A stretch of DNA of 64,000 nt, from NCBI GenBank assembly GCA_963798095.1, contig CAWCSD010000024.1:6526-70525 (forward strand), written 5' to 3'. The DNA is from an uncultured Alphaproteobacteria bacterium (GTDB lineage: Bacteria; Pseudomonadota; Alphaproteobacteria; Rhizobiales; Xanthobacteraceae). Made by a program: the position numbers and the translations under genes. Positions 37,677 to 60,835 of this stretch are shown here, piece after piece. Positions within the stretch are counted from its first letter, which is position 1. The number at the start of each line of letters is the position of its first letter. The notes below the pieces were generated by a model. The model ran no database searches and was not told the origin of the DNA. It saw only the letters and a list, made by a program, of their open reading frames with translations.

Positions 37677-37726
37677 TCCCAGGCATTATATTCCCTTATA
37701 TGTTGGGTAGCGTTGGGAGTTTTACC

Positions 37727-38611
37727 ATGGCACCGAGGGCGAATTGGAAGGGTTTTCTGAAGCTTTCCTTGGTCTCCTGCAGTGTCGGCCTGGTTCAAGC
37801 CACCTCGTCCAAGGATCGGATCCGCTTCAACATCATCAATCGTGAGACCGGTAATCGCGTACGATTTCGGCAGATTGACGCCGAAACCGGGGAAGATGTT
37901 CCCGAAGAAGACCGGATCAAGGGGTTTAAGGCGGCCGACGGCTCCTATGTGCTGCTGGAACCCGAGGAACTCGACGAAGTCGCGCTGGAGAGCACCCACA
38001 CCATCGATATCGAGGCCTTCGTGCCCCGCAAGGACATCGACGAAATCTACCTCGATACGCCCTATTACCTATTCCCCGACGACGAGGTCGGGGTCGAAGC
38101 CTTCGCCGTGATCCGGGACGCCATGCGGTCGACTTCGCTGGTCGGGATCGCCCGCGTGGTGCTGCATAATCACGAACTCGTGCTGATGCTCGAGCCGCTG
38201 GACAAGGGCATCAAGGCGACGGCGTTGCGCTATCAAGACGAGATCCGCGACGCCAAGGAGTATTTCTCCGACATCGAGACCGTGAAGGTGCCGAAGGACA
38301 TGCTCGAGCTTGCCGAGCACATCCTCAAGACCAAGCGCGGTCATTTCGACCCGTCGAAGTTCTCCGACCGTTACGAGGATGCGCTCAAGGCGCTGATCAA
38401 GGCGAAGCAGGCGGGCAAGCCGGCGCCGGCCGTTCCGGAGCGGCCGAGCAATGTCATCAATCTGATGGACGCGCTGCGCCGTTCGGTGCGTTCCGAGCGT
38501 AGCGGCGGCGAGGCGCCTGCGCATCGCGGCAAGCAACGCGCCGCGCGCTCCAGCACGGCGTCACGCAAGCGCGGCGCCGTCAAAACCAAGCGCCTCAAAC
38601 GCGCCGGCTGA
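37727..38611 (+). CDS. ku: Ku protein (NHEJ DNA-end-binding)
   Basis: MAPRANWKGFLKLSLVSCSVGL, YYLFPD, basic Lys/Arg-rich C-terminal tail. Confidence 0.9.
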   Translation: MAPRANWKGFLKLSLVSCSVGLVQATSSKDRIRFNIINRETGNRVRFRQIDAETGEDVPEEDRIKGFKAADGSYVLLEPEELDEVALESTHTIDIEAFVPRKDIDEIYLDTPYYLFPDDEVGVEAFAVIRDAMRSTSLVGIARVVLHNHELVLMLEPLDKGIKATALRYQDEIRDAKEYFSDIETVKVPKDMLELAEHILKTKRGHFDPSKFSDRYEDALKALIKAKQAGKPAPAVPERPSNVINLMDALRRSVRSERSGGEAPAHRGKQRAARSSTASRKRGAVKTKRLKRAG

Positions 38612-38613
38612 AC

Positions 38614-41256
38614 GTGGCCCTCGACGTCTACCGCAAGAAGCGAAAGTTCGGCGTCACGCCGGAGCCGCGCGGCCGCAAGGAAAAACGCGGCGACAACCGA
38701 TATGTGATCCAGAAACACGCGGCGCGGCGGCTGCATTACGATCTGCGGCTCGAGCTCGACGGCGTCATGAAAAGCTGGGCGGTCACGCGCGGCCCGAGCC
38801 TCGATCCGGGCGAAAAACGTCTCGCCGTCCACGTCGAGGACCATCCGGTCGAATACAACACTTTCGAGGGCACTATCCCGCAAGGCGAATATGGCGGCGG
38901 CACCGTGATGATCTGGGATCGCGGCCGTTGGACGCCTGAGGGCGATCCGCATCAGGGGCTCGCCAAGGGGCACCTGACATTCGATCTCGACGGCGAGAAA
39001 TTGCACGGCCGCTGGCATCTGGTGCGGCTTCGCGCGCGGCCGAAGGAACGCCGCGACAACTGGCTGCTCATCAAGAGCAAGGACGAGGCGGCGCGCGGGC
39101 CGCGTGGCAAGGATATCCTTGAAGAAGAGCCGCTGTCGGTCGCGACCGGCCGCTCGATGGACGAGATTGCCGAAGGCAAAGGCAAGAAGCGGGTCTGGCA
39201 CAGCAATCGCGACGCCAAGAAGGCGCCGGCGCAGCAGAAAGTGCCGGTCGTCAAGCCGGCGGCAAAACCGCGGGCGCGCGCCAAAGCCGCGGTCAGAACC
39301 AGTGCGCAGAAAAAGAGCTCACGGGCCGCGCACGACCGGCTTGCCCGACTTCGTTCCGCCCAGCCTTGCCACTCTGCACAGCGACGCGCCGCGCGGCAGC
39401 GAATGGCTGCACGAGATCAAATACGACGGCTATCGCATCCAGGCGCGGCTCGATCACGGCAAGGTGCGCTTGCTGACGCGCAAAAACCTGGATTGGACGC
39501 ATCGCTTCAAGCCGATCGCGGCGGCGGTCGCTGCACTGCCTGCCGAAACCGCGCTGCTCGACGGCGAACTGGTGGTCGAAGACGACAAAGGCATTTCGAG
39601 CTTCTCGCTGCTGCAAACCGATTTGAAGGACGACCGCGGCGATCGGCTGGTCTATTACGTGTTCGACCTGCTGCATCTCGACGGCCGCGATCTGACCGGC
39701 GAGCCATTGGTGGCGCGCAAGGCGGCGCTGCAGGCGCTGCTCAAGGGCACGGGCAAAACCGGCCGCATCCGCTACGCCGAGCATTTTACCGAAGATGGCC
39801 CGGTGATACTCAAGCACGCCTGCGGCCTGGATCTCGAAGGCGTCGTATCGAAGCGCAAAGATGCGCCTTATCGCTCCGGCCGCTCGGAGAATTTCATCAA
39901 GGCCAAATGCCACAACGCCCAGGAATTCGTCGTCGCCGGCTATAGCCCGGCGTCAGCCGATCCGCATGCGGTGGGCGCGCTCACGGTCGCCGTGCACGAC
40001 AACGGCGAACTGCGCTACGCCGGACGGGTCGGCACCGGCTACACCCGCAAGACCGCGCGCGAGCTGTGGCAGCGGCTCAAATCCTTGAAGATCGACAAGC
40101 CGCCGCTCACGCTGCCGAAGGACGAGCGCCGCAAGGACGTCATCTGGGTGAAGCCGCAACTCGTCATCGAGGCGGAGTACCGCGGCGTCACGCATGGTAA
40201 CGTGCTGCGCCAGGCGTCATTCAAGGGCCTGCGCGAGGACAAGCCGGCGCGCGAGGTGGTGCGCGAAGTGCCGGTCGCGGCGATGGCGCAGCGGCAGGCG
40301 GTGCGGAAGTCGGCACGGACGATGGCAAAATCACGCAACAAGGCGCCGGCAAAGACGCAGCCTGCGAAGCCTGCGACAGCGCGCGCCAAGGCAAGCGCCC
40401 GCAGCGCGGCTGATATCGGCAATGTTCACCTGACCCATCCCGACCGCGTCTATTGGGTCGACGTCGGCGTCACCAAGGAAGATTTGGCCGAATATTACGT
40501 CAGCGTCTGGGACTGGATGGCGCCGCACGTGGTCGACCGGCCGCTGGCTTTGGTGCGTTGTCCGGGCGGCACCAAGGGCCAATGTTTTTTCCAAAAACAT
40601 ATCGCGGAAAATGTGAAGGATTCGCCGCTGCGCCACGCCGTCGACGCCAAGGAGCACGACGTTATCGCCGTGGAAAAGCTCGACGACGTGATCGCGCTGG
40701 TGCAGACCGGCACGTTGGAAATCCACACCCGCGGCTCGCGGCTTGAAAAACTCGAGCTCTGCGACCGCATCGTGTTCGATCTCGATCCGGGCGAGGGGGT
40801 AGCTTGGAAGGAAATCGTCGCTGCGGCGCGCGATGTGCGCGAGCGACTCGATGCATTGAAGCTTAAAAGCTTCGCCAAGCTGTCAGGCGGCAAGGGTATC
40901 CACGTGGTGCTGCCGATCGCCGGCGCCGATTGGGACGTGGCGAAGAATTTCAGCCAAAGAATCGCGCTCGGCATGGCCGCCGACAGCCCGCAGCGCTACG
41001 TCGGCAAAATGACCAAGGCGCTGCGCAAAGGCAAAATCTTCATCGACTATCTGCGCAACACGCGCGAGGCGACTTCGGTCGCGCCCTATTCGACGCGCGC
41101 CCGTCCCGGCGCCGCGGTCTCGGCGCCGCTATCGTGGGAAGAGCTCGGCCGCACCAAGAGCGCCGCCGAATTCACCGTGCTCAATCTGAAAAAGCGCTTC
41201 CGCACGATCCCTGGGCCGACATCGGCAAGGTGCGGCAGAAGCTGCCGGCTAAATAA
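38614..41256 (+). pseudogene. ligD: ATP-dependent DNA ligase LigD (phosphoesterase-ligase-polymerase), two frameshifts
   Basis: The PE domain (YVIQKHAARRLHYDLRLE) is in frame A. The ligase (EIKYDGYR) and polymerase/primase (FDLDPGEG...GGKGIHVV) domains are in frame B from about 39310. The last 17 codons (DPWADIGKVRQKLPAK*) are in frame C from about 41205. Confidence 0.85.
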
Positions 41257-41258
41257 CG

Positions 41259-41516
41259 TCACCCCGCGAGCTTGAAGCGCTCGGCCTTCGGCTCGAACCG
41301 CGAGCGAAAAATTTCCGCGTCCAACGGGTCGGCGAAGCAGTAGCGCACGAAGGCGGCGTAATCGTCCTCGACATACATGTCGAATTTCTCGACGTATTGA
41401 ATGAGGAAATCCAAAATCTCGCTGTCATCGGCCAGTTGCCGCCGTGGCAACACCACCTGATAGGGGCATTCCTCATCGAGCTTGCGCAGCCATGCGCTTT
41501 TCTTGTCCGAATCCAT
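41259..41516 (-). CDS. Hypothetical acidic 85-aa protein behind an SOS box
   Basis: MDSDKKSAWLRKLDEECPYQVVLPRRQL... No family recognised. An AT-rich promoter with TTGACA and a LexA-type box lies immediately upstream. Confidence 0.45.
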   Translation of the reverse strand: MDSDKKSAWLRKLDEECPYQVVLPRRQLADDSEILDFLIQYVEKFDMYVEDDYAAFVRYCFADPLDAEIFRSRFEPKAERFKLAG

Positions 41517-41546
41517 TGTCTTCAGCCCTTGTTCGAACCGTCTAAT

Positions 41547-41561
41547 GTTCACTATTTGTTC
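41547..41561 (-). promoter_or_regulatory. Alphaproteobacterial SOS (LexA) box, GTTC-N7-GTTC
   Basis: Plus strand GTTCACTATTTGTTC, which is GAACAAATAGTGAAC on the gene strand. It starts 5 nt downstream of a TTGACA hexamer (41567..41572, minus strand) and ends 31 nt upstream of the ATG at 41516. Confidence 0.6.
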
Positions 41562-41641
41562 TAGATTGTCAAGCGATTTTCCAGGTGGCCTTTCGCGGAA
41601 GTTGGGGATTTCCGAAGACGAGGGCGGCGCTGGCCCCAGAA

Positions 41642-41893
41642 TTATTCGACGTCGAGCGGCTCGGTGCCGGTCGGCTTGCCTTGCGCATCCAGCGTGATCT
41701 TCTCGACGCGCGCCTCGGCTTGGCGCAACAAATCCTCGCAACGGCGCTTGAGCGCCTCGCCGCGTTCGTAGATGGCGACCAATTCCTCGAGCGGCACCTT
41801 GCCTTCTTCGAGCCGCTTGACGATCGATTCCAATTCCTCGATCGCGCGCTCGAACGGCAGTTGTGCAATATCGCTGTTGGCTTTCTGCGCCAT
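41642..41893 (-). CDS. xseB: Exodeoxyribonuclease VII small subunit
   Basis: 83 aa. [43 protein letters not shown]. Confidence 0.85.
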
Positions 41894-41950
41894 TCTCGGC
41901 TCTCCCACTCGCAATGTTCCGATATTAGCGTGTTTGCGGCAGCGGCGTCG

Positions 41951-42881
41951 CTACCCATGCATCAGCGTCGTGACGTGGGCGGCGACCGAATTGCCCAGCG
42001 CCCGCAGATCATAGCCACCCTCGAGCAGCGACACGACACGGCCCTCGGCGCAGTGATCGGCGACGTCCATGATCTTTTGCGTCACCCAGACGAAATCGTC
42101 CTCGCTAAGATTGATGCTGGCGAGCGGGTCGCGCATGTGGGCGTCGAAACCGGCGGAGATGATGACGAGCTCCGGCCGGAACTCGCGCAGCCGCGGCAGG
42201 ATCCTATCCTCGAAGGCGGCGCGGAACGCCTCGCCGCCGTCGCCGGGGCGCAGCGGCGCGTTGACCACGGTGTTGTGCGTGCCGGATTCGATGACGGCGC
42301 CGGTGCCGGGAAACAGCGGCATCTGGTGGGTCGAGCAATACATCACCGATTTGTCGGCCCAGAAAATCTCCTGCGAGCCGTTGCCGTGGTGCACGTCGAA
42401 ATCGACGATCGCGGCACGCGCGATGCCGTGCTGCTTTTGCGCGTAGCGCGCGGCGATGGCGGCATTGTCGAACAGGCAAAAGCCCATAGGGCGCGCGGTC
42501 TCGGCGTGGTGGCCGGGCGGGCGCGTGGCGACGAAGGCGTTTGTCGTCTTCTTGGCCAAGACCTCGTCGACGGCGAGGACGGCGCCGCCGACTGCGCGCA
42601 AGGCCGCTTCGAACGTGCCAGGCGACATCGAGGTGTCGGCGTCGAGACTGCACCATGCCCTCTTTGGGCGAGGCTTCGCGCAGCTCGACGATGTAGTCCA
42701 TCGGATGGCACAGCGCGATGGTCTCGATGGCCGCCATCGGCGCCTGCTCGCGGGCGAGCGGTTGGAACTTTTCCGCTTCCAGCGCCTGCTCGATGGCGCG
42801 CAGCCGGTCGGGCCGCTCGGGATGGCCGGCCGGAGTCAAATGTTCAAGGCAAGCGGGATGGCTGATCAGGAGTGTGGACAT
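41951..42881 (-). pseudogene. Histone-deacetylase-family (acetoin-utilisation/AcuC-like) protein, one frameshift
   Basis: The N-terminal part (MSTLLISHPACLEHLTPAGHPERPDR...SPKEGMVQ) is in ORF 42204..42881. The remainder (LDADTSMSPGTFEAALRA...RPPGHHAE...DFDVHHGNG) is in ORF 41951..42628. The switch is near 42640..42650. Confidence 0.8.
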
Positions 42882-46541: not shown

Positions 46542-46616
46542 TGGGGCGTAGCCAAGTGGTAAGGCAGCGGATTTTGATTCCGCCATTCCCTGGTTCGAAT
46601 CCAGGCGCCCCAGCCA
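46542..46616 (+). tRNA. tRNA-Gln (anticodon UUG), CCA encoded
   Basis: Cloverleaf read by hand. Acceptor TGGGGCG/CGCCCCA. Anticodon stem GCGGA/TCCGC with loop TT-TTG-AT. T arm CCTGG-TTCGAAT-CCAGG. Discriminator G plus CCA. Confidence 0.9.
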
Positions 46617-47009
46617 CGCAGTCTGGTCTCTAGGGGGTGTTTCCCACTCACAAGAATTAGCGCGACATTACCGCGAGTTAGCGAGACGTTGCGCGGTCTC
46701 TGCAGCTCAATTTTCCGGATTTTGAGCCACCACCGCTCAATTCCGCACGTCAGTCTCCGGTCGCCAATTTTCAATATCCGTGTTCTGGCTGTGGAGACTC
46801 GGTTCGACATCGCACGAGACCCGGTTCGAATTTGAATCATGCCGAATTAGTCAGCACGAATGAGTGCAATTCTGGCGCATCGACAACATCGGGCACGTAT
46901 GAGGTCGGCTGCGCGGCAAACGGTGCGAGTGCGCCAGCGGCTTGAAGCGGCGCAGTCGATTTGCAGTGATGCGCCGTAGCGTAGTAGCCCAGACTGCATT
47001 GGAGACCAT

Positions 47010-47249
47010 ATGCTTGGCATTCCACGTCGCTACAGCCACTTCGTCTTTGGGACTATTCAAGCAGGATTAACTTCGCTAATCGCCGCTGGGATTGCGAGCT
47101 TATCCTTCTCAGCTCAGGGGCACTTTTTAAGCCACTGGCTAGTGTCCTGGCTAATTTCATGGGCGGCAATGCTTCCCCTTGTGCTGTTTGCTGCTCCCTC
47201 CATTCGCGCCCTCTCGATCCTGCTTACGAAAGAGGAGCCAACCCATTGA
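47010..47249 (+). CDS. DUF2798-like small membrane protein
   Basis: 79 aa with two hydrophobic helices. The N-terminus (RRYSHFVFGTIQAGLTSLIAAGIAS) resembles DUF2798 from memory. Confidence 0.55.
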   Translation: MLGIPRRYSHFVFGTIQAGLTSLIAAGIASLSFSAQGHFLSHWLVSWLISWAAMLPLVLFAAPSIRALSILLTKEEPTH

Positions 47250-47396
47250 GGCACGATCCAGGGGCGATCAGTCCCCCATTCAGATTGTCACCCAGAAGTG
47301 ATGTCGACGCGACATGAATGTTATTTGCATTTAGCGAATGGCTGCCGCATCCAGGCCGCTCTTTATCGGTAAGGAACCGCGAAAAGGGGCGGACAC

Positions 47397-47804
47397 ATGT
47401 CAGCGCTGAACTCTGGTCGGCTCGCATTCGATGGCTTGCGGGTGGGCGAGCTCGCTCGGCCAGCGGCGGAGAAATTCGCGGGCGCGTGGCTTGCTTGCCT
47501 TCTTGTGATGGCACGAGGCAATATCTTTGCGGCGTTCAGTTACGAGCATATAGTGCTCGCCACAGTTTGCGGTTCTGTGGGCGCGGTGGTTACGGTTGCA
47601 CTTCTCCTCCAGATGGACCGGACAATTAACAGCGTGAGCCGCCAGGCGACACTCAGCGCAGTCGTGACGCTGGTCGGTGATGTGTTCGCACATCCATCGC
47701 ATTTTGGCCCCCAATGGGCGGAGCCGGTGGTCACTGCCGCTGTATCAGCTGCAATAGCGGTTGCGCTATGGTACGCAAAGCGGTGGTTGCGCGTAGCCAA
47801 CTGA
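47397..47804 (+). CDS. Hypothetical membrane protein
   Basis: 135 aa with 3-4 hydrophobic segments. No family recognised. Confidence 0.4.
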   Translation: MSALNSGRLAFDGLRVGELARPAAEKFAGAWLACLLVMARGNIFAAFSYEHIVLATVCGSVGAVVTVALLLQMDRTINSVSRQATLSAVVTLVGDVFAHPSHFGPQWAEPVVTAAVSAAIAVALWYAKRWLRVAN

Positions 47805-47869
47805 TGAGAAAAATCGCGGCCCCGGTTAGGTGATCGTAAGCTGACAATTCGGTGCAATAGGAGCCCATT

Positions 47870-48493
47870 ATGCCCAATATAACCATGCTGGACATCGAGG
47901 CGTTGCGGGCCACCAAGCTCAAACCGTATATCGACAAGTGTCTCGAACACCGCGCTCCCGATCCAGGCTTTCACGCTGTAATGGGTCACAACATCGATCT
48001 TTGCGAGGCGATGTTTGTGGCTTGGGACGCCTGCTTCAACAAGGGCAGCATTCCGCATAAGCTTAAAGAGATCATTCGCGTGCAACTCTCGCGCGCCGCG
48101 TCCTGCACTTATTGAGGCAATGTTCGGTCTGCTTCGGCGAAGCGACAGGGACTGTCGGAAGCGCTACTCGACGAAGGCATCGACAATTATGCCGCGAGCG
48201 AGCGCTTTACGCCGGCCGAGAAGATTGCGCTGCGTTACAGCGAGATGATGTCGGTCAATCCTGGCGCGGTCGACGCCGCGTTGTTCGATGAGCTGCGGCA
48301 CCACTACAGCGACGACGAGATCGTCGAGCTTGGCGCCTTCATCGGCTTTAACCTCGGCTATCACACGTTCTTCGGCACACTAAAATTCTATCCGCTGTTT
48401 TCGCCCGACGGCCGGCTCGTGAGCCAAGCCGAATCGGAGAAGCTCTACGGTGCGGCGCCTGTCTCGCTCGGCAAAACGGAGGCGGCAGAATGA
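47870..48493 (+). CDS. AhpD/carboxymuconolactone-decarboxylase-family protein with one in-frame TGA at 48113..48115 (Sec candidate or nonsense pseudogene)
   Basis: ORFs 47870..48115 and 48245..48493 share one frame, and 48116..48244 has no other stop. The read-through product has ...RAAS-C-T-Y-[TGA]-GNVRS..., so the TGA replaces the second Cys of CxxC. Confidence 0.65.
48131..48162 (+). other. Stem-loops 16-47 nt downstream of the in-frame TGA (candidate bacterial SECIS)
   Basis: GCTTCG-g-CGAAGC (48131..48143). CGACAG-gga-CTGTCG (48143..48157). An outer pairing GCTTC (48131-35) with GAAGC (48158-62) is possible. G-containing apical loops. Confidence 0.3.
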
Positions 48494-49044
48494 CCTACAT
48501 TGCGCCGCTGCCAATGGAGGCTATCGCCGATCCCGAGCTGCGCGCGCTCATGGCCGAAGCTGAGGTACTCGGCGTGCCTGACGATTTGTTTCCACGCATC
48601 GTCGCCCGCGCGCCGGAGCAAGCGGTGCCGCTGATGCGCGCGCTCATCATGAGCCACACGAAGGGCAATGTCGATCACACGCTCAAGGAGATCATGCGAA
48701 TTCTTTTGGCGCGCTTCGCCAGCGACAGATATTTCGCCGGCCTGCGCTCAAACAAGGCCCGCGCCATGGGCTTGACGGAAGCGCGCATCGACGACGGCTG
48801 CTTTGCCTACGAGGACGAATCAAAGAGCTTCGGCGCCGCCGAAATATGTGCGCTGCGCTATGCCGATCTGATGTTTCTCGATGCCAATCAAATCGACAGC
48901 GCGTTCTACGATGAGATGAAGAAGCACTGGAGCGAAGCGCAAATCATGGAACTCGGCGCCTTCATCGCTTTCCACTATGGCATGCAGATGTTCATGCGCT
49001 CTCTAGGCGCTGTTCCGCGTCAAATCTCTGATCGATCTCGGTAG
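48490..49044 (+). CDS. AhpD/CMD-family paralogue without the CxxC motif
   Basis: ATGA overlap with the upstream gene. ARFASDRYFAGLRS aligns with SRAASCTY*GNVRS. The C-terminal EIMELGAFIAFHYG is equivalent to EIVELGAFIGFNLG. Confidence 0.75.
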   Translation: MTYIAPLPMEAIADPELRALMAEAEVLGVPDDLFPRIVARAPEQAVPLMRALIMSHTKGNVDHTLKEIMRILLARFASDRYFAGLRSNKARAMGLTEARIDDGCFAYEDESKSFGAAEICALRYADLMFLDANQIDSAFYDEMKKHWSEAQIMELGAFIAFHYGMQMFMRSLGAVPRQISDRSR

Positions 49045-49097
49045 CTTTGTTGAGTAATTCCTCGGCGATTTTCTGAAGTTGTTGCTTTAGCCGGACT

Positions 49098-49452
49098 TCA
49101 GAGCATTGCCGTCGCGAAAGTCATGATCGTACAGGCGTTGTGCAGGTACTCGTCGATCAGCTTGTTGTAGAGGCGGACGCGATGCGCGGGCCAATGGCGT
49201 CTTCGGCATCAGCGGCGGATCGGGAAGTGCCTCGTCGATGTAATAAAGGATCAGCGAGGACTCGATGATGACATTGCCGTCGTGAACCAGTGTCGGCACC
49301 ACGCCGTTCGGATTGAGCTTCATATAAGCAGGGTCGTTCTGGTCGCCCTGCAACGTGAGCAGATGCTCTTTGATCTGCTGGTCCTTTTCGAAGAGCGCGA
49401 TCCGAACCTTCTGGGCGCAGACCGAGTTAATATTGTGATAAAGCTCGAGCAT
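49098..49452 (-). pseudogene. Glutathione S-transferase remnant (frameshifted, C-terminal domain missing)
   Basis: The thioredoxin-like N domain is intact (LELYHNINSVCAQKVRIAL...NPNGVVPTLVHDGNVIIESSLILYYID). After ...PLARA the homology continues in another frame (HRVRLYNKLIDEYLHNAC) and stops at 49098. Confidence 0.65.
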
Positions 49453-49504
49453 GCGTCCTCCTTTAAATGTTTTCTTGTGAGTTCGGTCGATTGCCGCCTG
49501 GCGC

Positions 49505-50479
49505 CTAGGCCGCCAATCTTGCGCGATCGTGCGGTTGACCGAAATCGACCGGTGTTCCCTTTGGGATGATCATTGTCGGGTTCACTTTGGCGATCGAATA
49601 GTAATTGATGACGTAGTAGCGCGGCGTCACCGTCGCGGCGACACCCGGCACCTGATAGAGCTCGCGCATATAGTTCGAAAGGTTCGGATAGTCGGCGATG
49701 CGCTGCCGATTGCATTTGAACAGCGAGAAATAAGCGACGTCGAAGCGCACCAGAGTGGGAAACAGTCGCCAATCCGCCTCGGTGATCTGATCGCCGACCA
49801 GATAGCGTTGACGGGACAGCCTATTCTCGATCCAGTCGAGCGTCGCAAAAAGCCCGTCATAGGCTTCCTCGTAGGCCGCCTGGCTCTTGGCGAAGCCGGC
49901 GCGATAGACGCCATTATTGACGTCGCGATAGATGCGTTCGTTGACGGCGTCGATCTCCGCCCGCAGGCTGACCGGATAGAAGTCGGCGCGATCGCCGGTG
50001 AAGTCGTTGAACTCGGAATTGAACATCCGAATGATCTCGGAGGACTCGTTATTGACGATGCGCCCGGTCGTCCTGTCCCAAAGGGTCGGGACGGTGACCT
50101 TGCCGGTGTAATTTGGATTGCTCGCGACGTAGGCTTCGTAGAGATACTGGAAGCCGTTCACTTCATCGGGAATGCAATCCGGATAGCGCGGATCGCGCGC
50201 GAAGGTCCATCCCTTCTGCTTGAGCCCCGGCACCGCGTAGGCCACCGAGACGATGTTTTCGAGCTTCTTGAGCGCGCGATAGATCAGCGTCCGGTGCGCC
50301 CAGGGGCAGCCGTGCGCTACATAGAGATGGTAGCGGCCGGGCTCGGCTTTGAAGCCCGACGAACCGTCGGCGCTGATGCGGTCGCGAAAAACGCTGTCGG
50401 CCCGCTTGAACTGTCCGCTTTTCCCGGTCTCCTCCGGCAGCTCGCCGTCGGTCCACTTGCCTTGGATTACAACGCCCAT
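49505..50479 (-). CDS. yqjG: Glutathionyl-hydroquinone reductase (Xi-class GST)
   Basis: 324 aa, uninterrupted. Hallmark GRYHLYVAHGCPWAHRTL, VPTLWD and NGVYRAGFA. Confidence 0.88.
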   Translation of the reverse strand: MGVVIQGKWTDGELPEETGKSGQFKRADSVFRDRISADGSSGFKAEPGRYHLYVAHGCPWAHRTLIYRALKKLENIVSVAYAVPGLKQKGWTFARDPRYPDCIPDEVNGFQYLYEAYVASNPNYTGKVTVPTLWDRTTGRIVNNESSEIIRMFNSEFNDFTGDRADFYPVSLRAEIDAVNERIYRDVNNGVYRAGFAKSQAAYEEAYDGLFATLDWIENRLSRQRYLVGDQITEADWRLFPTLVRFDVAYFSLFKCNRQRIADYPNLSNYMRELYQVPGVAATVTPRYYVINYYSIAKVNPTMIIPKGTPVDFGQPHDRARLAA

Positions 50480-50551
50480 TGCGTCACTCCGGGGGATACG
50501 GTTGAGGTTGATTTTGTATCAGTCGCTATATAACGTCAAGGGCGCCAAAGG

Positions 50552-51186
50552 ATGGCGAGGCAATTTGGCATGCCGCGACCGCGGGAGTTCGACGAAACTG
50601 CGGCGCTCGATGCAGCGATCGAGTGCTTTTGGCGTCGCGGCTATGAGGCGACGTCGCTGCGCGACCTTACTGCAGCGATGGGGCTGACGGCGCCGAGCCT
50701 TTACAACGCCTTCGGCGACAAGGAGGAACTGTTCGCGCTCGCGCTCGAGCGCTATCTCGATAGCAACACGCGCGGCCGGCTGCGCCGTCTCGAGGAGACG
50801 CTTGCGCCCAAGCAGGCGATCGCGCGATTTTTCGCGGGAGATCGTCGAGCACTCGGTGAACGATCGACAGCGCAAAGGGTGTTTCTTGGTCAACTCGGCG
50901 CTCGAGATTGCGCCGCATCATGCGCAATGCCGCGCCGTCATCGCCAGGCAGTTCCAGGGCATCGAGGGATTCTTCGCGAGGTGCATTCTCGCGGCTCAAG
51001 CCGAAGGAACGGTCCCGCTCGAGGTCGACGCAGACGACGTCGCTAAGCTCCTTGTTAGGCGTGCTGCTCGGCGTGCGCGTGCTGGCGCGCACAAATCCGA
51101 GCCGTGGCGTGCTCGAGGGCATCGTGCGCCCTGCGCTCGCACTGCTCGACCCGCCGCACCACGGTCAAAAGAGAGGAAAGCGATGA
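50552..51186 (+). pseudogene. TetR-family regulator, two frameshifts
   Basis: The HTH (AAIECFWRRGYEATSLRDLTAAMGLTAPSLYNAFGDKEELF) is in frame 1. REIVEHSVNDRQRKGCFLVNSALE... is in frame 2 from about 50830. LGVLLGVRVLARTNPSRGVLEGIV... is in frame 3 from about 51050. Confidence 0.7.
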
Positions 51187-51888
51187 TCGACCTTTATTAT
51201 TGGACGACCCCGAACGGCCACAAGATCACGATCTTCCTCGAAGAGGCACGGGCTTGCCCTATCGGATCGTGCCGGTCAATATCAGCAAGGGCGAGCAGTT
51301 TAAGCCGGAATTCCTAGCGATTTCGCCGAACAATCGCATGCCCGCGATCGTCGATCGATGCGCCGAAGGACGGTGGCTACCCGGTTTCGGTTTTCGAATC
51401 CGGCGCCATCCTCGTCTATCTCGCCGAGAAGACCGGCAAGTATCTGCCGACCGGACTTTCGCGAGCCGCAGTCGCGTCATGGAATGGCTGTTCTGGCAGA
51501 TGGCCGGGCTCGGGCCGATGGCAGGCCAGAACCATCACTTCTCGCAATATGCGCCGGAAAAGATCCCCTACGCGATCGAGCGCTACGTCAAAGAGACGAA
51601 CCGCCTATATGGCGTGCTCAACAAGCGACTCGCGGATCATGAATTCGTCGCCGGCCGACTATTCGATCGCCGATATGGCGGCCTATCCCTGGATCGTCCC
51701 TTATGAGCGGCAGGGCCAGAAGCTCGAAGATTTTCCGAATCTGAAGCGCTGGTTCGAAGCGATGCGCGACGCGGCCGGCGGTCAAGCGCGCCTACGCGCG
51801 GGCCAAGGAGATCAATACAACGCCGACGGTCAGCGAGGAATCGAAGAGGATCCTCTTCGGCCAGACAGCGGCCGTGGCCGCTCGCTGA
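51183..51888 (+). pseudogene. YfcG-like glutathione S-transferase, five frameshifts
   Basis: Collinear with E. coli YfcG as I recall it: MIDLYYWTTPNGHKITIFLEEA | GLPYRIVPVNISKGEQFKPEFLAISPNNRMPAIVDR | DAPKDGGYPVSVFESGAILVYLAEKTGKYLP | SRVMEWLFWQMAGLGPMAGQNHHF...FVAG | DYSIADMAAYPW... | RPAVKRAY...AAR*. The frame order is 0,2,0,2,0,1. Confidence 0.75.
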
Positions 51889-51906
51889 GCCGACGTGCAA
51901 AACCGA

Positions 51907-52602
51907 ATGACACTGCGTCTCTACGATCTCGCCGGCGCCGATCCGGATCGGCGTTTCAGCCCATATTGCTGGCGCACACGGCTCGCCCTGGCGCACAAGA
52001 GAGCTTACGGTCGAAACCGATCCCGTGGCGCTTTACCGAAAAGGCGGCGATCGCCCCGTCGGGCCAAGGCGTTCGTCCCGGTCCTGGTCGACGGCGATCG
52101 TTGGATCGCCGATTCCTGGACCATCGCGAACTATCTCGAAGACACCTATCCCGATCGCCCGTCTCTGTTGGCGGTACCGCCGCCGGCGAGACCTGACCCG
52201 CTTCTATTCGATCCTCGCCGACGCGTCTGGTCAGCGGCGATTTTTCCGTTCATCGCGCTCGATATCCTGCGGCATCGTCGCACGGACAAGGATCGCGACT
52301 ATTTCCGCACCAGCCGCGAAAAGCGCGTCGGCATGACGCTGGAGGCATTCGTCGCCGACCGCGAGGCGAAGCTTCCCGCCTTTCGCGCCAGCCTCACGCC
52401 GCTGCGTCTCACGCTGAAGCGCAGCCGTTCTTCGGCGGCGACGAGCCGCTCTATGCCGACTATGCCGTGTTCGGCCCATTCCAATGGGCACGCTGCATCA
52501 GCCCGTTCGCGCTGCTGGACGAGGACGATCCGGTCAGGCTGTGGCGCGATCGCTTGCTCGATCGTTTCGACGGCGCTGGCGCGCAAGTCCGCCGGCCTAT
52601 GA
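51907..52602 (+). pseudogene. Glutathione S-transferase, at least five frameshifts
   Basis: The segments MTLRLYDLAGADPDRRFSPYCWRTRLALAHK, IPWRFTEKAAIAPSGQG, VPVLVDGDRWIADSWTIANYLEDTYPDRPSL, LTRFYSILADASGQ, ...DRDYFRTSREKRVGMTLEAF... and QPFFGGDEPLYADYAVFGPFQWARCISPF... alternate between frames. Confidence 0.6.
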
Positions 52603-52645
52603 CGTCTGAGTTCATCTCCATGCACTGAAATGAAGTGAGGTCATC

Positions 52646-53304
52646 ATGTCCCTGAAAGAACAGCTCGCCGAATATCGCGCCGGCTGGTTCAAGCGCGTTC
52701 CGGCGGAACGGCAAGCCGATCATGGAGCGCCACATCGAGCAGCTTCGCAACGGTCTCGCGAAGACGGCCCTGAAGGCAGGCGATCGCGCGCCGTCGATCG
52801 TACTCGTGCAACGCCAAGGGCGAAACCGTCGACGTCGGTGCACTCTTGAGGAAAGGACCGGTCATCGTCACCTTCTATCGCGGCGGCTGGTGCCCGTACT
52901 GCAACCTTGAACTGCAGGCGTTCCAGCAGGTCCTGCCCGAGATCGAGGCAGCAGGCGCATCGCTGGTGGCGATCAGCCCCGAAAAGCCCGACGACACGCT
53001 GTCGACCGCGGAGAAAAACGCGCTCACCTTCGAAGTGCTGAGCGATGTCGGCCAGAAGGTCGGCCGCGCGTTCGGGCTGGTCTATGATTTCAGCGATGAG
53101 CTGAAATGCGCTTACAAGGAGTTCGGCCTGGACATTCCCGGCAAGAAATGCGCGCCGGTGAATGGGCGTTGCCGATTTCGGCCACCTACGTCATCGACCG
53201 CGACGGCTCCATCGTCTATGCCTATACGGATGCGGATTATCGCGATCGGCGGGAGAACCCCAAGTGTCCTAGCGGTGCTAATGCGAAATGCCGCCGCAGC
53301 GTAA
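52646..53304 (+). pseudogene. Peroxiredoxin-like (AhpC/TSA family) protein, at least four frameshifts
   Basis: MSLKEQLAEYRAGWFKRVPAERQA | MERHIEQLRNGLAKTALKAGDRAPSIVL | KGPVIVTFYRGGWCPYCNLELQAF...GLDIPGK | GEWALPISATYVIDRDGSIVYAYTDADYRDR | PSVLAVLMRNAAAA*. The last two shifts compensate for each other. Confidence 0.7.
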
Positions 53305-53361
53305 GGCTGCTAGACGACTTCCAGCCACGGGCGCTTCGCTTCCGCTTATCGTGCGGACAAT

Positions 53362-53775
53362 ATGGGCCGTGATCCGTTGGATATACTATATGCCTCAGGC
53401 GCGTCATATGCGGTAAATCTTGCTGGAGACCGGTTCGAACTCTGGCACCCTGGCAGCCAGTTCAGCCGGGAGGTGCACACGGCCTTTCTGTCGGCTGGAA
53501 CCGCAAAAAGTCTCCGGTCGCGGTTCGTTCCGATATTGCGGGAATTTCGGGCCATATTTAGAAGGCCAGATCCCAAATTGAGCATTGGCGGTTCGAATCT
53601 CGCCAGGGCAACGCGCGAGATGCTCGGTGCGGTTGGCGGCGCTGCCGTCAATTACGCCTTTGTCGAGCATTTTCAGGAGATGGCGCGAGGTCATTTCACC
53701 GTTCGCCGGCTCGAACGAGTCTACGGCAAGGCCGTTGTCCGGACCGAATATGAGCGCCTGGCGCAAAACCGCTGA
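53362..53775 (+). CDS. Hypothetical protein (137 aa)
   Basis: Open frame only; no recognisable motif. May be a fragment. Confidence 0.3.
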   Translation: MGRDPLDILYASGASYAVNLAGDRFELWHPGSQFSREVHTAFLSAGTAKSLRSRFVPILREFRAIFRRPDPKLSIGGSNLARATREMLGAVGGAAVNYAFVEHFQEMARGHFTVRRLERVYGKAVVRTEYERLAQNR

Positions 53776-53837
53776 TGGCCAATAATCCGAAATGAGCTAA
53801 TCGGCGTTCCGAGCTTCTTAGCGCCTCGCGCGCACTA

Positions 53838-54470
53838 TCAAGCTGCTGCCGATGCATGCAGCAAGCCTCCGATTGCTAGCCGCGTGACGAGCTCGGTCAA
53901 TTCATCTGTGAATGGCTCGTCGGTCGTGATGCTGAACGGCTCGTGCGCGAATAGCTCGCGATTCCGCACGAAAATGCTGCATTGGCCCATGAGCCAGATG
54001 GCCACGCATAGGGCGGCCCGTTTCTGTGTGTCAGGAGGTAGGAATCGGCGCACGATATCGACCGCAGTGGTCAGATAGGAGCCCGTATTCGTCGCCATGA
54101 ACTTGAGAAAGATCTTGCTGGGATGGGCGCTCTCCCAGGCGAAAAGGCGAATGTAGCGGCTCATCTCGTCGCGAAATAGGAGCGGCCGCAATTGCTGGTA
54201 CACGAAGCTTCGCAGAGCCTCTTCACGGGAAAGCGACTTGAGTTTCTCCGGCTCAGATCCCGCATGTTCTGTCAGCTTCTCGAGCGCAGTTTTGAGGACT
54301 TCGAGGTACAACCCGTCCTTGCCTTTGAAATGATAATTGATGGCTGCCTGATTGACCCGAGCTTTGACGACGATGTCCCGCACGCTCGCACCCTGGAAGC
54401 CTTTTTCCGCGAACAGATGGACGGCGGCCTTGATAATGGAACCGCGAGTGTTTTCGGCCGGACGGGACAT
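53838..54470 (-). CDS. TetR-family transcriptional regulator (CerR-type C-terminal domain)
   Basis: MSRPAENTRGSIIKAAVHLFAEKGFQGASVRDIVVKARVNQAAINYHFKGKDGLY. The ATG at 54470 lies 11 nt from the first palindromic operator. Confidence 0.8.
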   Translation of the reverse strand: MSRPAENTRGSIIKAAVHLFAEKGFQGASVRDIVVKARVNQAAINYHFKGKDGLYLEVLKTALEKLTEHAGSEPEKLKSLSREEALRSFVYQQLRPLLFRDEMSRYIRLFAWESAHPSKIFLKFMATNTGSYLTTAVDIVRRFLPPDTQKRAALCVAIWLMGQCSIFVRNRELFAHEPFSITTDEPFTDELTELVTRLAIGGLLHASAAA

Positions 54471-54480
54471 GGGTTTCCAA

Positions 54481-54498
54481 TTCAAACGACTGTTTGAA
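54481..54498. promoter_or_regulatory. Palindromic operator O1 (TTCAAAC-gact-GTTTGAA)
   Basis: The 16-nt core TCAAACGACTGTTTGA is repeated exactly at 54558..54573. It sits in the TetR 5' region. Confidence 0.55.
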
Positions 54499-54556
54499 CT
54501 TAATGTCATAACGTCCGCCAGAAGGCAAACAGCCTGGCGAAACGTCATCTTTTGGC

Positions 54557-54575
54557 CTCAAACGACTGTTTGAAT
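54557..54575. promoter_or_regulatory. Palindromic operator O2 (same 16-nt core), plus a half-site GTCGTTTGA at 54597..54605
   Basis: Exact second copy 76 bp from O1. The third element is the reverse complement of the left half-site TCAAACGAC. Confidence 0.5.
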
Positions 54576-54661
54576 TTCAAATGATCGTATGATATAGTCG
54601 TTTGAAAGCAAGGACTGGATATGCAGAAACTTCAATGCTTACGGATATTCGGGGATCTTCC

Positions 54662-54910
54662 ATGCTGAAGCGAACATCGAGGTTTGTCTTGGAGGTGTTG
54701 CCGTACCTGCTATCCGCGCTGATTGCGGCGGTCGTTCTGCCCGGGTTCCTCTATTCACAGGCTCACGAAACTAAGGCCGCGGTCACGCCAAACGTCCCCG
54801 GTCTCGAAATGATCCACCGGGACCATGCCATGTTAGCGCCCGACATGCTTCGCGGCCAAAACGGCCGAAGGCAAGGTGGCATATCGCTAAGTAGGGGTCG
54901 ATACCGGTGA
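54662..54910 (+). CDS. Possible small membrane protein divergent from TetR
   Basis: MLKRTSRFVLEVLPYLLSALIAAVVLPGFLY (one TM). Weak coding evidence. Confidence 0.25.
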   Translation: MLKRTSRFVLEVLPYLLSALIAAVVLPGFLYSQAHETKAAVTPNVPGLEMIHRDHAMLAPDMLRGQNGRRQGGISLSRGRYR

Positions 54911-55125
54911 CGCGCCAACTAGTCACAAAACTGAGGAGTTCTGCCATGTCACGCCATTGGCGAACGGTTTCCAAGGCAATTCAAAAACTCGCAACCGGCC
55001 TGCATGAGGTCAAGAGCGAAGGAATGTTCCCTTACGAGACTTACTATGTCCTCGCAACCGATAAAGAGCTCGAGCAACTCTACGATTTGGCAACGACGAG
55101 CATTCACGTAGCGGACGACAATAAA

Positions 55126-56562
55126 CTACGATCCGACAGAGGACATTTGCTCGAGCTGGCTTAGAGGCATGGGCGCACGTTCCAGCGCGGTGAGAAAGCG
55201 GTCGGCCCAGTGTTGGATGTCGTTGTGCGAGAGCACCCGAAACAGCGAGTCGTGCCGCTCGCGACGCTCGGCTAGTGGCATCGAGAGCGCCTGCCCGATG
55301 GCCGCTGCGACGCTGTCGGGATCGTAGGGATTAACCAGTAGCGCTGCTTTACATTCATGAGCCGCCCCAGCGAAACGCGATAGGACAAGCACACCCGGAT
55401 CATCGGGATTCTGCGCGGCGACATATTCCTTTGCGACGAGGTTCATACCGTCACGCAGTGGGGTCACCAGCCCAACGCGCGCGGCGCGATAAAGTCCGGC
55501 AAGTGTCGTGTGGCTATAGGCACGGTTGATGTAGCGGATTGGCGTCCAGTCTGCCTCACCATAGGCGCCGTTGATGCGTCCCGCGGCCGATCCAATCACT
55601 TGCTCCATATCGGCATATTCCGGAATCTCGGTACGGCTCTTGGGCGCGATCTGCAGATAAGTCACTTTTCCCCGCCAGTCAGGTTGCGTCTGGAGGAACA
55701 ACTCGAATGCCGAAAGCCGCTGCGGGATCCCTTTCGAGTAGTCCAGGCGATCGACCCCGATGATGAGCGCACGGCCAACCAGGCTGCTTATCACGCGCTT
55801 AACGAACGGCAATCGCACTGAACGCTGGGCAAGATGGGCGAAGGCCGCAGTCTCGACGCCGACCGGAAACACGTCGATCCGGACCCTCCGGTCGCCGATG
55901 ATGAAGTTGAAATCGTGGCTGTGCAGGCCGCATTCCCGCGTGAGATAACGGCTGAAATTGAAGGCATCATCGCCAGTCTGGAAGCCGACTAGATCGTAAT
56001 CGCAAAGCGACGGAATGAGACGCTCGTGGTGAGGCAACGCAGTCAGTATTTCCGGCGGTGGGCATGGGACGTGAAGGAAAAAGCCGATCCGATTCTTATG
56101 CCCACGCTCGCGCAGCGCCTTGGCAAGCGGCATCAGGTGATAATCATGCACCCAGACGACGTCATCCGGCCCGAGCACCTCGTGCAATTGGCGCGCGAAA
56201 TGATCATTGACACGCAGATAGCCGCTCAGATCCCGGCGCGAGAACTCGGCGAGATCGATGCGGTAGTGCAGGATCGGCCATAGCACCCGATTCGTGAAGC
56301 CATTGTAGTATTCCTGGTGATCCTCTTTGGAGAGATCGAACGTGATGTAGGTAATCTTGTCGTGCACAACCCGCTGCGTAGCGATCTTGGTGTGCGCGGC
56401 AACCTTTCCGCTCCAACCCAACCAAATGCCAGTTTTGTGCTTCAGTGCCGCCCTGACGGCGACTTCAAGCCCGCCGGCGCGCGCCCTTGCATTTTGCTCG
56501 GGAATGCCAACTCTATTCGAGACTATGACAAGCTGTCCCAATAGCGGTCCTCTCTGCGACAC
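55126..56562 (-). CDS. otsA: Alpha,alpha-trehalose-phosphate synthase (UDP-forming)
   Basis: 478 aa. LVIVSNR, YYNGFTNRVLWPILHY, VWVHDYHLMPLA, GVDRLDYSKGI, TPLRDGMNLVAKEY. Confidence 0.92.
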   Translation of the reverse strand: MSQRGPLLGQLVIVSNRVGIPEQNARARAGGLEVAVRAALKHKTGIWLGWSGKVAAHTKIATQRVVHDKITYITFDLSKEDHQEYYNGFTNRVLWPILHYRIDLAEFSRRDLSGYLRVNDHFARQLHEVLGPDDVVWVHDYHLMPLAKALRERGHKNRIGFFLHVPCPPPEILTALPHHERLIPSLCDYDLVGFQTGDDAFNFSRYLTRECGLHSHDFNFIIGDRRVRIDVFPVGVETAAFAHLAQRSVRLPFVKRVISSLVGRALIIGVDRLDYSKGIPQRLSAFELFLQTQPDWRGKVTYLQIAPKSRTEIPEYADMEQVIGSAAGRINGAYGEADWTPIRYINRAYSHTTLAGLYRAARVGLVTPLRDGMNLVAKEYVAAQNPDDPGVLVLSRFAGAAHECKAALLVNPYDPDSVAAAIGQALSMPLAERRERHDSLFRVLSHNDIQHWADRFLTALERAPMPLSQLEQMSSVGS

Positions 56563-56672
56563 TGACCGGCCTTCATAAAGTGGTCGACTTGTAATGTTAG
56601 TTGAGAGTTTGTGCTGACGCCACCGTGGGCACGCCGACCGTTAAGCGGCTACGCAATTACCTTTTTTGGTTC

Positions 56673-57803
56673 CTATTGCCGGCGTTCCAAAGTCATCCTA
56701 AGTCCGTATCGTGGTCGCAGTGTGATTAGGCCTTGAGGTTCGACGGGATGGCCAGGCTTTAGGTGCAGCCGATAGCGCTGGGCGATCATGGCTAGGATGA
56801 GCATTGCCTCCGTCATCGCAAATGCCGCACCGATGCAAATGCGTTGACCGGCCCCAAACGGAATATAGGCGAAGCGCGGGCGCGCGAGAACGCGCTCGGG
56901 CGAAAATCGCTCCGGATCGAAGCGATCAGGGTGTTCCCAAAGCGAGGGCTTGCGGTGCAGCAGCCACGGAACGATCAGAACCAGGGCGCCGGCTGGAATA
57001 CGATGACCAAGAACATGGTCGGTGACGATCGGCTCGCGCGCCATGGTGTGCGCTGGCGGGTAGAGACGCATTAATTCCTCGATCACCATGCGCGTGTAGC
57101 GGAGGCTGGCGAGATCGTCATAGCGTGGGACGCGTCCCCCGAGCACTATTCTCAATTCGTCATGCAACTTGGCTTCCGCTGCAGGATGGAGCGAGAGTAG
57201 GTACCATGTCCAGGCGAGTGCCTGGGCTGTGGTCTCGTGCCCCGCCATGAAGATCGTGACCACCTGATCGCGAACTTCTTTCGCCGTCATGCCACCGCCA
57301 GTCTCGCTATCGCGCGCTGCGATCAGCCGGGCCAGCAGATCCCTTGGCTCGGTGTTCGGTTCACGACCTCGCGTGCTGAGCAAACGATCAACTGACTTGT
57401 CGAACTCGTCGAAAGCTCCAATAGCCCGTCGGAACGATAGCAGCCGCGTGAGCCACACCGGGAACCGTAGCAGATCGAGGAGGCTGGGCCGTACGCTCGC
57501 CTGATATTGCCCGACGCCGCGTTCGACAACATCGACAATCTCATCTGAATCGGAGGAGAACATCGCGCGCGAGATAATGTGCAGCGTCGTGTGCATCATC
57601 GCTGCCGCAACATCGATCTCACTGAAGTCGGCCAGGGCATCCCACTGCTCGAGCAGACCCGCTGTTACCTCGGTTATGATCGGCGCATAGCCGATGATGC
57701 TGCGATGGTCGAAGGCGGGCGCCATGATGCGCCGATGCCGGCGCCAGGTTTCTCCCTCGCTGGTCAAGAGGCCGCGGCCGAGTCCGGGTTCAAGGAGCCT
57801 GAA
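56673..57803 (-). pseudogene. Cytochrome P450 lacking roughly its first 100 codons
   Basis: Homology starts abruptly at ...LLEPGLGRGLLTSEGETWRRHRR, with a TGA 5 codons further upstream in the same frame. The I-helix (AGHETT), ExxR and heme loop (FGAGQRICIG) are present. There is no ATG near the 5' end. Confidence 0.8.
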
Positions 57804-57807
57804 TCGC

Positions 57808-57954
57808 GAACGTCAACCGCTTGGTCAAGACCGCTCGCATCAAGTGCGGCAGGAGGATGGGACCGGGTGACAGCGAGGTGGCGTTGTACATGGAGATCAG
57901 CCCGCACACCGGAATGCGGGCGAACGGATTGAGTAGCGGGAACACGGCCTCGAA
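57808..57954 (-). pseudogene. 49-codon internal fragment of a CurA/YncB-like NADP-dependent oxidoreductase
   Basis: FEAVFPLLNPFARIPVCGLISMYNATSLSPGPILLPHLMRAVLTKRLTF matches the C-terminal third of E. coli CurA as I recall it. Both ends are abrupt. Confidence 0.6.
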
Positions 57955-58454
57955 TAGCCGAGCGGGATCGACCCGCCGACCCAAATGCCTTTGGATTTGG
58001 AAGCCGCGATCTTATCGCGGACCCGCTCGCCGATGACTTCTCGCTCGAACTGCGCGAAGGACAAGAGCACGTTAAGCGCCAGTCGCCCCATGCAGTGGCG
58101 GTGTTGAATTACTGGGTGACGCTCACGAAGGAGACCGATGGTGGTCAAAAAGCTCGACCAGCTTGGCGAAGTCCGACAGCGATCGGGTCAGGCGATCGAC
58201 CTTGTAGGCCACACCGAGTCGATCTTGCCGGCGCGGATCTCGACCAGAGCCGCTGCAGCGCAGGGCGGTCGAGTGAGGCCGCAGAGTACGCCCCGTCGTC
58301 ATAACGCTCGGGGATGGCGCCCCCAGCCCTCCTCCGCCTGGCTCTTGACGTAGGCCTCGCAGGCTTCGCGTTGTGCGTCCAAGGTGTTGAACTCCAGGTC
58401 AAGGTTATGATCGGTGGATTTCCGGGTGTAGATTGCGCAGCAGAGGAGCTTCTT
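57955..58454 (-). mobile_element. Serine recombinase remnant (resolvase catalytic domain only, multiply frameshifted, 3'-truncated)
   Basis: [37 protein letters not shown] | [23 protein letters not shown] | ...MGRLALNVLLSFAQFEREVIGERVRDKIAASKSKGIWVGGSIPLGY. These lie in at least three frames, and homology ends at about 57954. Confidence 0.7.
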
Positions 58455-58662
58455 GGCGGGCTTAACGGCCGTGTCTCCGGCCACGATCCTGCTGTGGCAG
58501 TCGATCAGGATAGGCAAACCATGTGCCCGAATGTTTTAATGCTTCGGGCGATATCCCTAATTTGCCTTGTGCTGTGCTGCCGGGATTTTTTCGGGTCGGG
58601 GTTCAGCAGGCTCAACGCCACGTATATAATGGTGAGGCTGCCGAGGGCGATAATTTCCGCCA
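58455..58662 (-). pseudogene. N-terminal fragment of a ParB-like-domain protein (as in ParB-fused DNA methyltransferases), frameshifted
   Basis: [46 protein letters not shown] then, in another frame, [19 protein letters not shown] Shine-Dalgarno 7 nt upstream. It runs straight into the recombinase remnant. Confidence 0.5.
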
Positions 58663-58732
58663 TTCTTCGCTCCTACTGTGAAAGCCGCGGAACTGCCCGC
58701 GGTTCAGGAGCGAATGATTAGAGTAGGGGGTG

Positions 58733-58767
58733 GTCTCGCGAGCCGGTTAGCGAGACCTACTTTTTCT
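58733..58767 (+). terminator. Canonical hairpin plus T-tract, plus-strand orientation
   Basis: GGTCTCGC-gagccggtta-GCGAGACC followed by TACTTTTTC. No convincing plus-strand gene ends here. Confidence 0.45.
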
Positions 58768-58833
58768 GCTGACTTTCTTTCGAGCGCGTGTCAGCCGATG
58801 CTTCAGACCCGGAAATCGGTGCCGAAGCAGAAA

Positions 58834-59289: not shown

Positions 59290-59323
59290 GGTCTAGTTTC
59301 CTGTGCGAATGTTTCATTTGAAG

Positions 59324-59827: not shown

Positions 59828-60040
59828 TCTAAAAGTTCGATCCAAATTTGCCGACAATATAAAGTGCGGGCAGGGATCAACCTGGGCGACGAGGCATTAC
59901 CCCTCGAGCAATTAAAGCACTCTCGAATTACTATATAGTAAAGCATGGATGTGGCTGACTTTTCGGATTAGCCTAGTGACTACGGAATGGTCTCAGCTGA
60001 TTTTCATAATGGATTTGGCGCGCAGGAGGAGCGGCTGACG

Positions 60041-60712: not shown

Positions 60713-60835
60713 CGCTGCGAGCAGGCCTAGTTTGGAGCATCTTCGATGATGCTAAGATGGCATCGAACGCCCCTCACTGCGGAGAATCATGTAAGGTCTC
60801 TCAACCTAAGAGAGTGGGGCGGTAGGGGTCTCGAC

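Follow-up and report, generated by a model that had tools for sequence, protein, structure and literature searches.

The 64,000-nt stretch of Xanthobacteraceae DNA analyzed here (the window) encodes, at 41259..41516 on the minus strand, an 85-aa acidic protein, p85, whose gene is most probably a LexA-repressed, previously unrecognized and lineage-specific small SOS gene. An earlier note on this DNA had proposed a new small SOS-regulon member at this position, and comparison with related genomes now supports the proposal, as candidate LexA boxes lie ahead of the gene in 79/79 usable orthologous loci, ahead of its distant homologue P0250 and ahead of lexA genes from the same bacterial family. 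The 15-bp direct repeat upstream of p85 is read as a LexA operator; its placement on the promoter and its retention in all 79 loci exceed chance. The regulatory part of this picture is a known operator in a known use and brings nothing new to SOS biology; the greater interest lies in what this highly conserved and widespread acidic protein, which occurs in the context of non-homologous end joining (NHEJ) and SRAP genes, does.

GTTC-N7-GTTC is the established LexA motif of the Alphaproteobacteria (PMC3323433, PMC9578287, bioRxiv 10.1101/2025.01.26.634973). In the window, GTTCACTATTTGTTC occupies 41547..41561 on the plus strand, exactly where the earlier note had read GTTC-ACTATTT-GTTC, and appears on the gene strand as GAACAAATAGTGAAC, an exact match to the motif. 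This predicted LexA operator (SOS box, minus strand) rests on that match and on the 79 orthologous upstream regions. A -35 hexamer, TTGACA, preceded by a C to give CTTGACA, lies at 41567..41572 on the minus strand (TGTCAA on the plus strand), and its position 5 nt ahead of the box on the gene strand, also claimed previously, is correct. The putative -10 hexamer, AACATT at 41544..41549 on the minus strand, is placed 17 nt past the -35 hexamer by geometry and alignment, overlaps the second GAAC half-site and reads AACAAT in most orthologues; it is a weak match to consensus, and a consensus promoter scan did not call it or the promoter. The order on the gene strand is thus CTTGACA-ATCTA-GAACAAATAGTGAAC-ATTAGACGGTTCGAACAAGGGCTGAAGACA-ATG, with the box beginning 5 nt past TTGACA and covering spacer positions 6-17 together with the first three bases of the -10 hexamer. 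The operator motif is therefore present without mismatch and sits on the core promoter. It also lies just before the p85 start codon, as had been noted, although the gap counts as 30 nt rather than the 31 nt given at first.

The bare GTTC-N7-GTTC motif occurs in the window about as often as chance predicts, with 2 matches against 1.8 expected in 64 kb, so the weight of the argument rests wholly on position and conservation. No further convincing box was found in the window when one core mismatch was tolerated. The surroundings of the box had been described as strikingly AT-rich; the 125-nt intergenic stretch is indeed poorer in GC than the window (52% vs 63%), but the difference is modest.

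In the mechanism proposed here, the 15-bp direct repeat would act as a LexA operator over a sigma-70-type promoter (CTTGACA, 17-nt spacer, AACATT). A LexA dimer bound to GAAC-N7-GAAC in undamaged cells would cover the spacer and the -10 region and block RNA polymerase, and RecA-stimulated self-cleavage of LexA upon DNA damage would free the promoter. A monocistronic p85 mRNA with a putative leader of ∼20 nt would then be made. LexA binding, damage induction and the role of the protein are inferred from what the sequences show directly, namely the promoter geometry, the conservation, the coding constraint and the gene contexts.

The conservation of the box was assessed in 80 related loci from 80 species-level genomes, all of uncultured soil Xanthobacteraceae, of which 79 have upstream DNA; the remaining locus (L003) was left out as a contig end cuts its upstream region. 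An exact GAAC-N7-GAAC lies within 170 nt of the start codon in 79/79 usable loci, against a chance expectation of ∼0.003 matches per 170-nt stretch per strand. Alignment on the box gives the profile C-T-T-G-A-C, six variable bases, GAAC-AAA-n-AG-n-GAAC-A-n-T, in which anchoring by regular expression makes the eight core columns invariant by force, so that the unbiased statistic is the 79/79 occurrence. Outside those columns, CTTGAC hardly varies (69-78 of 78 readable sequences) and held at a fixed spacing, ending 6 nt ahead of the box when the variable sixth base of the hexamer is counted. The spacer bases AAA-AG and the following A-n-T are likewise nearly invariant across orthologues, with A15 and T17 of the anchored alignment invariant or nearly so. 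Columns farther upstream carry ∼0-0.5 bit and the flanks are randomized, which means that the box has been kept before the orthologues in all 79 loci while the adjoining non-coding DNA diverged. The distance from box to ATG ranges from 43 to 140 nt across loci; given this variability and the fixed spacing of box and -35 hexamer, the conserved unit is a promoter plus operator that is not tied to the coding sequence. Retention of the box before orthologues was among the checks suggested in the earlier note, and it is borne out both in the 79 loci and at the 40%-identical homologue P0250.

It is very improbable that this conservation merely reflects the promoter elements of a constitutive gene whose resemblance to an SOS box is coincidental. 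Such a reading would fit the overlap of the second half-site with the putative -10 hexamer, the equal conservation of CTTGAC and the box, and the chance-level frequency of the bare motif in the window. The -10 hexamer explains the invariant A15 and T17 but not the first GAAC or the spacer AAA-AG, and sigma-70 promoters require neither an invariant GAAC at spacer positions 6-9 nor an invariant AAA-AG. Moreover, both tetramers are kept in 79/79 loci while the bases between the -35 hexamer and the box are free to vary, which argues for protein contact.

Several of these loci carry additional copies of the motif. In L038, the promoter-box unit occurs twice (∼2780-3000) with a run of N between the copies, most likely as a scaffolding artefact. 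Exact GAAC-N7-GAAC boxes with flanking TGTAC..GTACA palindromes also occur on the minus strand in L069 (∼4640-4654) and L070 (∼5422-5436), where an XRE/cI-like repressor gene has its divergent promoter region. A phage-like insertion downstream of p85 holds these boxes, and they may be prophage LexA sites.

The earlier note had also suggested comparing the operators of known SOS genes, a check that was carried out by proxy at lexA. An alphaproteobacterial LexA sequence, used solely as a search probe, retrieved Bradyrhizobium LexA proteins (91-95% identity), and five lexA loci were compared: that of B. diazoefficiens, one each on a JGI and an ENA contig, and two on NCBI metagenome contigs. All five Bradyrhizobium-type promoters carry GAAC-N7-GAAC and keep TTGC[A/G]-GAACA[C/T][A/G]TAT[C/G]GAAC-ATATAGTGT..GTTCATGATTTGTTTCGA while their flanks differ; the box, reading GAACA[C/T][A/G]TAT[C/G]GAACAT, directly follows a -35-like TTGC[A/G]G. 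The p85 box, GAACAAATAGTGAACAT, compared over 18 positions as GAACAAATAGTGAACATT, agrees at 14/18 positions with the B. diazoefficiens lexA box GAACATGTATCGAACATA and at 15/18 with that of the other contigs (GAACACATAT[C/G]GAACATA). This supports the operator assignment at the level of the family, the lexA genes being from another genus of that family rather than from the p85 genome. The p85 box shares its tetranucleotides and their spacing, along with an AT-rich spacer and a placement over the core promoter, with the LexA operators described for lexA, recA, uvrA and imuA-imuB-dnaE2 in Rhodobacter, Rhizobium/Sinorhizobium and Caulobacter. It differs from them in that its spacer is unusually invariant across orthologues and in that it precedes a gene outside the alphaproteobacterial SOS regulons described in the literature consulted.

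The lexA sequences (L081, L083, and L087-L089) contain a conserved 50-nt block located 75-135 nt upstream of the lexA start, with one exact GAAC-N7-GAAC and a second, imperfect GTTC-N7-GTTT on the opposite strand. An exact repeat on the promoter of this autoregulated gene, accompanied by an imperfect one, is what published work leads one to expect in alphaproteobacteria (PMC3323433, PMC9578287, bioRxiv 10.1101/2025.01.26.634973), and it suggests that the lexA promoters of Bradyrhizobium-type genomes carry a double operator.

The near-invariance of AAA-AG exceeds the published N7 description of the LexA motif and could reflect a second constraint. It also fits a different regulator, as the direct repeat might be the site of an OmpR/PhoB-type or CtrA-like response regulator that answers to a signal other than DNA damage; direct repeats phased at 11 bp are typical of winged-helix response regulators, and the LexA description has no need of AAA-AG. 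This alternative is nonetheless unlikely by a wide margin, since its tetranucleotides match those of the alphaproteobacterial LexA box exactly, the extended sequence is also conserved at lexA itself within the family, and a distant homologue with the box precedes a gene of the SOS-defined SRAP family (PMC3765255). Control by LexA remains the preferred reading of the site.

Downstream of the box, a second conserved element was found in the leader. The motif CGGTTCGAACAAGGG (consensus C-G/C-GTTCGGATCAAGG; 41526..41540, minus strand) is conserved at 1.0-1.8 bits per position and lies at +21 to +35 from the start of the box in the 79-locus alignment, beginning approximately at the putative transcription start. 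Between it and the ATG lie from 20 to >45 nt, depending on the locus. The third GTTC previously pointed out near the box does exist at 41531..41534 on the plus strand, but it is only partially conserved and sits in the transcribed leader, inside this motif and within the palindrome GTTCGAAC, and so does not count here as a LexA half-site. Ahead of the distant L084 homologue the leader motif turns up again, as GGTCAAGA. It may act as an RNA element or as a further regulatory site; a search of 41000..42000 against Rfam gave no match.

The p85 gene itself is supported by >1167 homologues (E at most 0.001), all annotated as hypothetical, and by its pattern of codon-position entropy. Among 73 in-register orthologues, which share 76-95% nucleotide identity and 81-100% amino-acid identity with the window p85, columns have a mean entropy of 0.25 bits at the first codon position, 0.17 at the second, and 0.84 at the third. 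Because entropy is concentrated at the third position, p85 is a real gene with clear purifying selection on its protein. The exact window protein is found on 163 contigs and the homologues form >1100 clusters at 90% identity; those that are named all come from Xanthobacteraceae metagenome-assembled genomes, and the organism is known from soil metagenomes alone. A HMMER pass over 1.84 billion representatives returned just 200 clusters, mostly fragments of the same lineage, so the family is narrow, and among the matches listed only P0235 and P0250 are clearly divergent full-length members. Four orthologues (L037, L047, L060, and L065) have a low-complexity N-terminal extension of repeated D-K-R/T-rich units before the core, from which it follows that the N-terminus tolerates insertions. 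A longer, TTG-started ORF of 160 aa (41259..41741) was rejected as the gene, as it would cross the conserved promoter into the xseB coding sequence (41642..41741) and conservation begins only at MDSDK. The weak terminator-like hairpin over the p85 stop codon (41260..41279, minus strand) is not significant, with two such sites in the scanned kb against 1.4 expected.

Contigs of close relatives in soil and rhizosphere metatranscriptomes cover p85, and several of them cross its promoter (41268..41561, 41269..41625, and 41000..41683) or span ligD-p85-xseB; no 5′ end from which to read a transcription start was found among them. These contigs are a weak indication that p85 is transcribed, as DNA carry-over or read-through from xseB may explain them.

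The p85 protein (10.2 kDa, pI 4.6) contains 19 acidic and 13 basic residues, and its invariant or near-invariant positions include V21, L23, P24, R25, F45, D46, Y48, V57, R58, C60, F61, D66, A67, and F70. The suggestion that it matches no recognized family withstood broader searching: Pfam, NCBIfam, and PHROGs assigned no family to p85 or to 27 family members, and a sequence profile search of the PDB with p85 gave no match. p85 shows neither a catalytic motif nor a membrane segment nor any known DNA-binding motif. An AlphaFold2 model built on a shallow alignment is of moderate confidence (pLDDT 70, pTM 0.54) and places a helix at 3-16, a strand at 19-24, a helix at 32-41, strands at 42-51 and 54-61, and helices at 64-74 and 77-81, that is, an N-terminal helix followed by a β-α-β-β-α order. 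Foldseek searches of the PDB and BFVD with this model returned only generic RRM/ACT/L23/PII-like α-β sandwiches (E at least 0.03, TM at most 0.6).

The gene neighborhood had been described as repair-flavored, with xseB upstream and ku-ligD convergent, and both domain matches and gene order bear this out. The xseB gene, encoding the exonuclease VII small subunit, lies at 41642..41914 on the minus strand (PF02609, E 6e-19), and the NHEJ genes ku-ligD lie at 37700..41275 on the plus strand (ku, PF02735; ligD, ligase and Prim-Pol domains), with ligD convergent with p85 and its stop overlapping the p85 stop region. A tblastn search of the window proteins against the 80 loci found co-directional xseB upstream, p85, and convergent ligD and ku in most of them. 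In most loci xseB is on the p85 strand and no more than 3 kb upstream; insertions of unrelated genes are frequent and separate p85 either from xseB or from ligD, ku lies upstream of p85 instead in L043 and L069, and several loci have no NHEJ genes within 3 kb. No conserved co-directional downstream partner of p85 was found in these 80 main-lineage loci, which have sporadic inserts only, and p85 is therefore monocistronic. The repair-gene context is real, yet within one family it could be inherited gene order, from which it is inseparable. The ligD coding sequence is spread over two overlapping frames, 38614..39945 (LigD phosphoesterase-like start) and 39104..41275 (ligase and Prim-Pol), so that either a frameshift is present or the assembly is in error.

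SRAP/YedK proteins form crosslinks with abasic sites of single-stranded DNA. No SRAP gene was found close to p85, whether in the window or in any of the 80 loci, and the link to this family comes from the two divergent homologues. P0250 (L084) is a 175-aa protein with two tandem copies of the domain, 40% identical to main-lineage p85, and its upstream region reads GGTTGACTCATGA-GAACAAAAAGAGAAC-AATTCCAGCCATAGGTCAAGACGGAGAGGCGAC-ATG; the TTGAC-N6-GAACAAAAAGAGAACAAT unit of the p85 promoters thus also precedes this gene, with the same order of -35 hexamer, box, -10 hexamer, and leader. Its stop is followed after 17 nt by a co-directional ORF beginning MCGRVRL.. (L084, 830-1141), which is longer in L086 (∼470-1012) and there matches SRAP (PF02586, E 1e-62). 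A scan with P0250 found one short contig. The tandem p85 homologue and the SRAP/YedK gene behind an SOS-box promoter in L084/L086 form an apparent SOS operon, and the SRAP family itself takes its name from an association with SOS operons (PMC3765255).

The second homologue, P0235 (L085), has 83 aa and 40% identity and was a singleton in a homologue search. An ORF starting MCGRF lies 17 nt downstream of it and is too short, and possibly too error-ridden, for a SRAP call. The GTTC-N7-GTTC of L085 lies ∼270 nt upstream of P0235 in a divergent region; read on the opposite strand, it has a 53-aa ORF 24 nt downstream and a p85-like leader motif alongside. That this box controls P0235 is uncertain; as the box fits the 53-aa ORF at least as well, L085 was not counted for P0235 regulation. 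The SRAP link is thus found in one rare clade (two contigs) and hinted at in one singleton.

The function of p85 was considered in light of known small SOS proteins. DinI is an 81-aa acidic SOS protein of the Gammaproteobacteria that modulates the RecA filament, with a core in the order β-α-β-β-α. Like DinI, p85 is small, acidic, predicted to be under LexA control, and matched in the predicted order of its core. Unlike DinI (PF06183), it lacks sequence or profile similarity to that family (no Pfam match; hhalign probability 0.2%), and DinI was absent among the best 50 Foldseek hits for p85. Stand-alone ImuB-C proteins offer a parallel in context: they are ∼80 aa long, mainly β-stranded, and marked by conservation of a C-terminal Trp and of two basic residues (PMC3765255), and their solo genes occur with SRAP alone or with Ku plus a ligase dependent on ATP (Aravind, Anand and Iyer, 2013, PMC3765255). 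p85 resembles them in size, SOS association, and both gene contexts, but it is modeled as an α/β protein of three to four helices and three strands, gives no Pfam match, and has no Trp among its invariant or near-invariant columns, although R25 and R58 are conserved. It is thus an analogue of ImuB-C in context, not a member.

An effector of a different kind is also worth weighing under LexA control, namely a damage-induced inhibitor of growth or division, or a toxin-like protein, in the role of SulA or SidA. Caulobacter SidA blocks division and is a membrane protein of 29 aa. Like sidA, p85 is a short orphan gene with a GTTC-N7-GTTC box in a single alphaproteobacterial lineage; small lineage-specific SOS genes often encode such inhibitors, and p85 is monocistronic and bears no enzymatic signature. 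The p85 protein is, however, 85 aa long, soluble, and acidic, with no membrane segment, unlike SidA; no conserved antitoxin-like partner gene lies beside it, and its contexts are repair genes. An inhibitor or toxin-like role is accordingly considered unlikely, less so than a response-regulator site.

The best guess for p85, offered with low confidence and drawn from gene neighborhood only, is that it assists damage tolerance or repair as a non-enzymatic accessory factor and would bind a repair protein or DNA, with a role near abasic-site shielding (SRAP/YedK), Ku-LigD end joining, or both. As a new family, p85 may work like the small accessory factors of the DinI or ImuB-C type. In a bolder version, possible but rather doubtful, p85 would found an unrecognized family of LexA-controlled accessory proteins acting with SRAP/YedK shielding and/or Ku-LigD, as a DinI-like or ImuB-C-like modulator that tunes the handover of damaged DNA between these pathways; its promoter-operator-leader unit is kept even more strongly than the protein. 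The accessory factors of bacterial end joining and abasic-site protection are poorly known, and the proximity of Ku-LigD and the presence of SRAP in a distant clade suggest a missing small partner in one or the other. The p85-bearing lineage is widespread in soil and has no cultured member; a confidently predicted, family-wide SOS gene gives a tangible way into its means of coping with DNA damage.

Elsewhere in the window, the base composition changes past a tRNA-Gln gene (46542..46616): from there to the end of the window, GC content drops from ∼0.65 to 0.54-0.61 and ORFs with high GC3 are few. A mobile element or island integrated at the tRNA gene probably accounts for 46542-64000.
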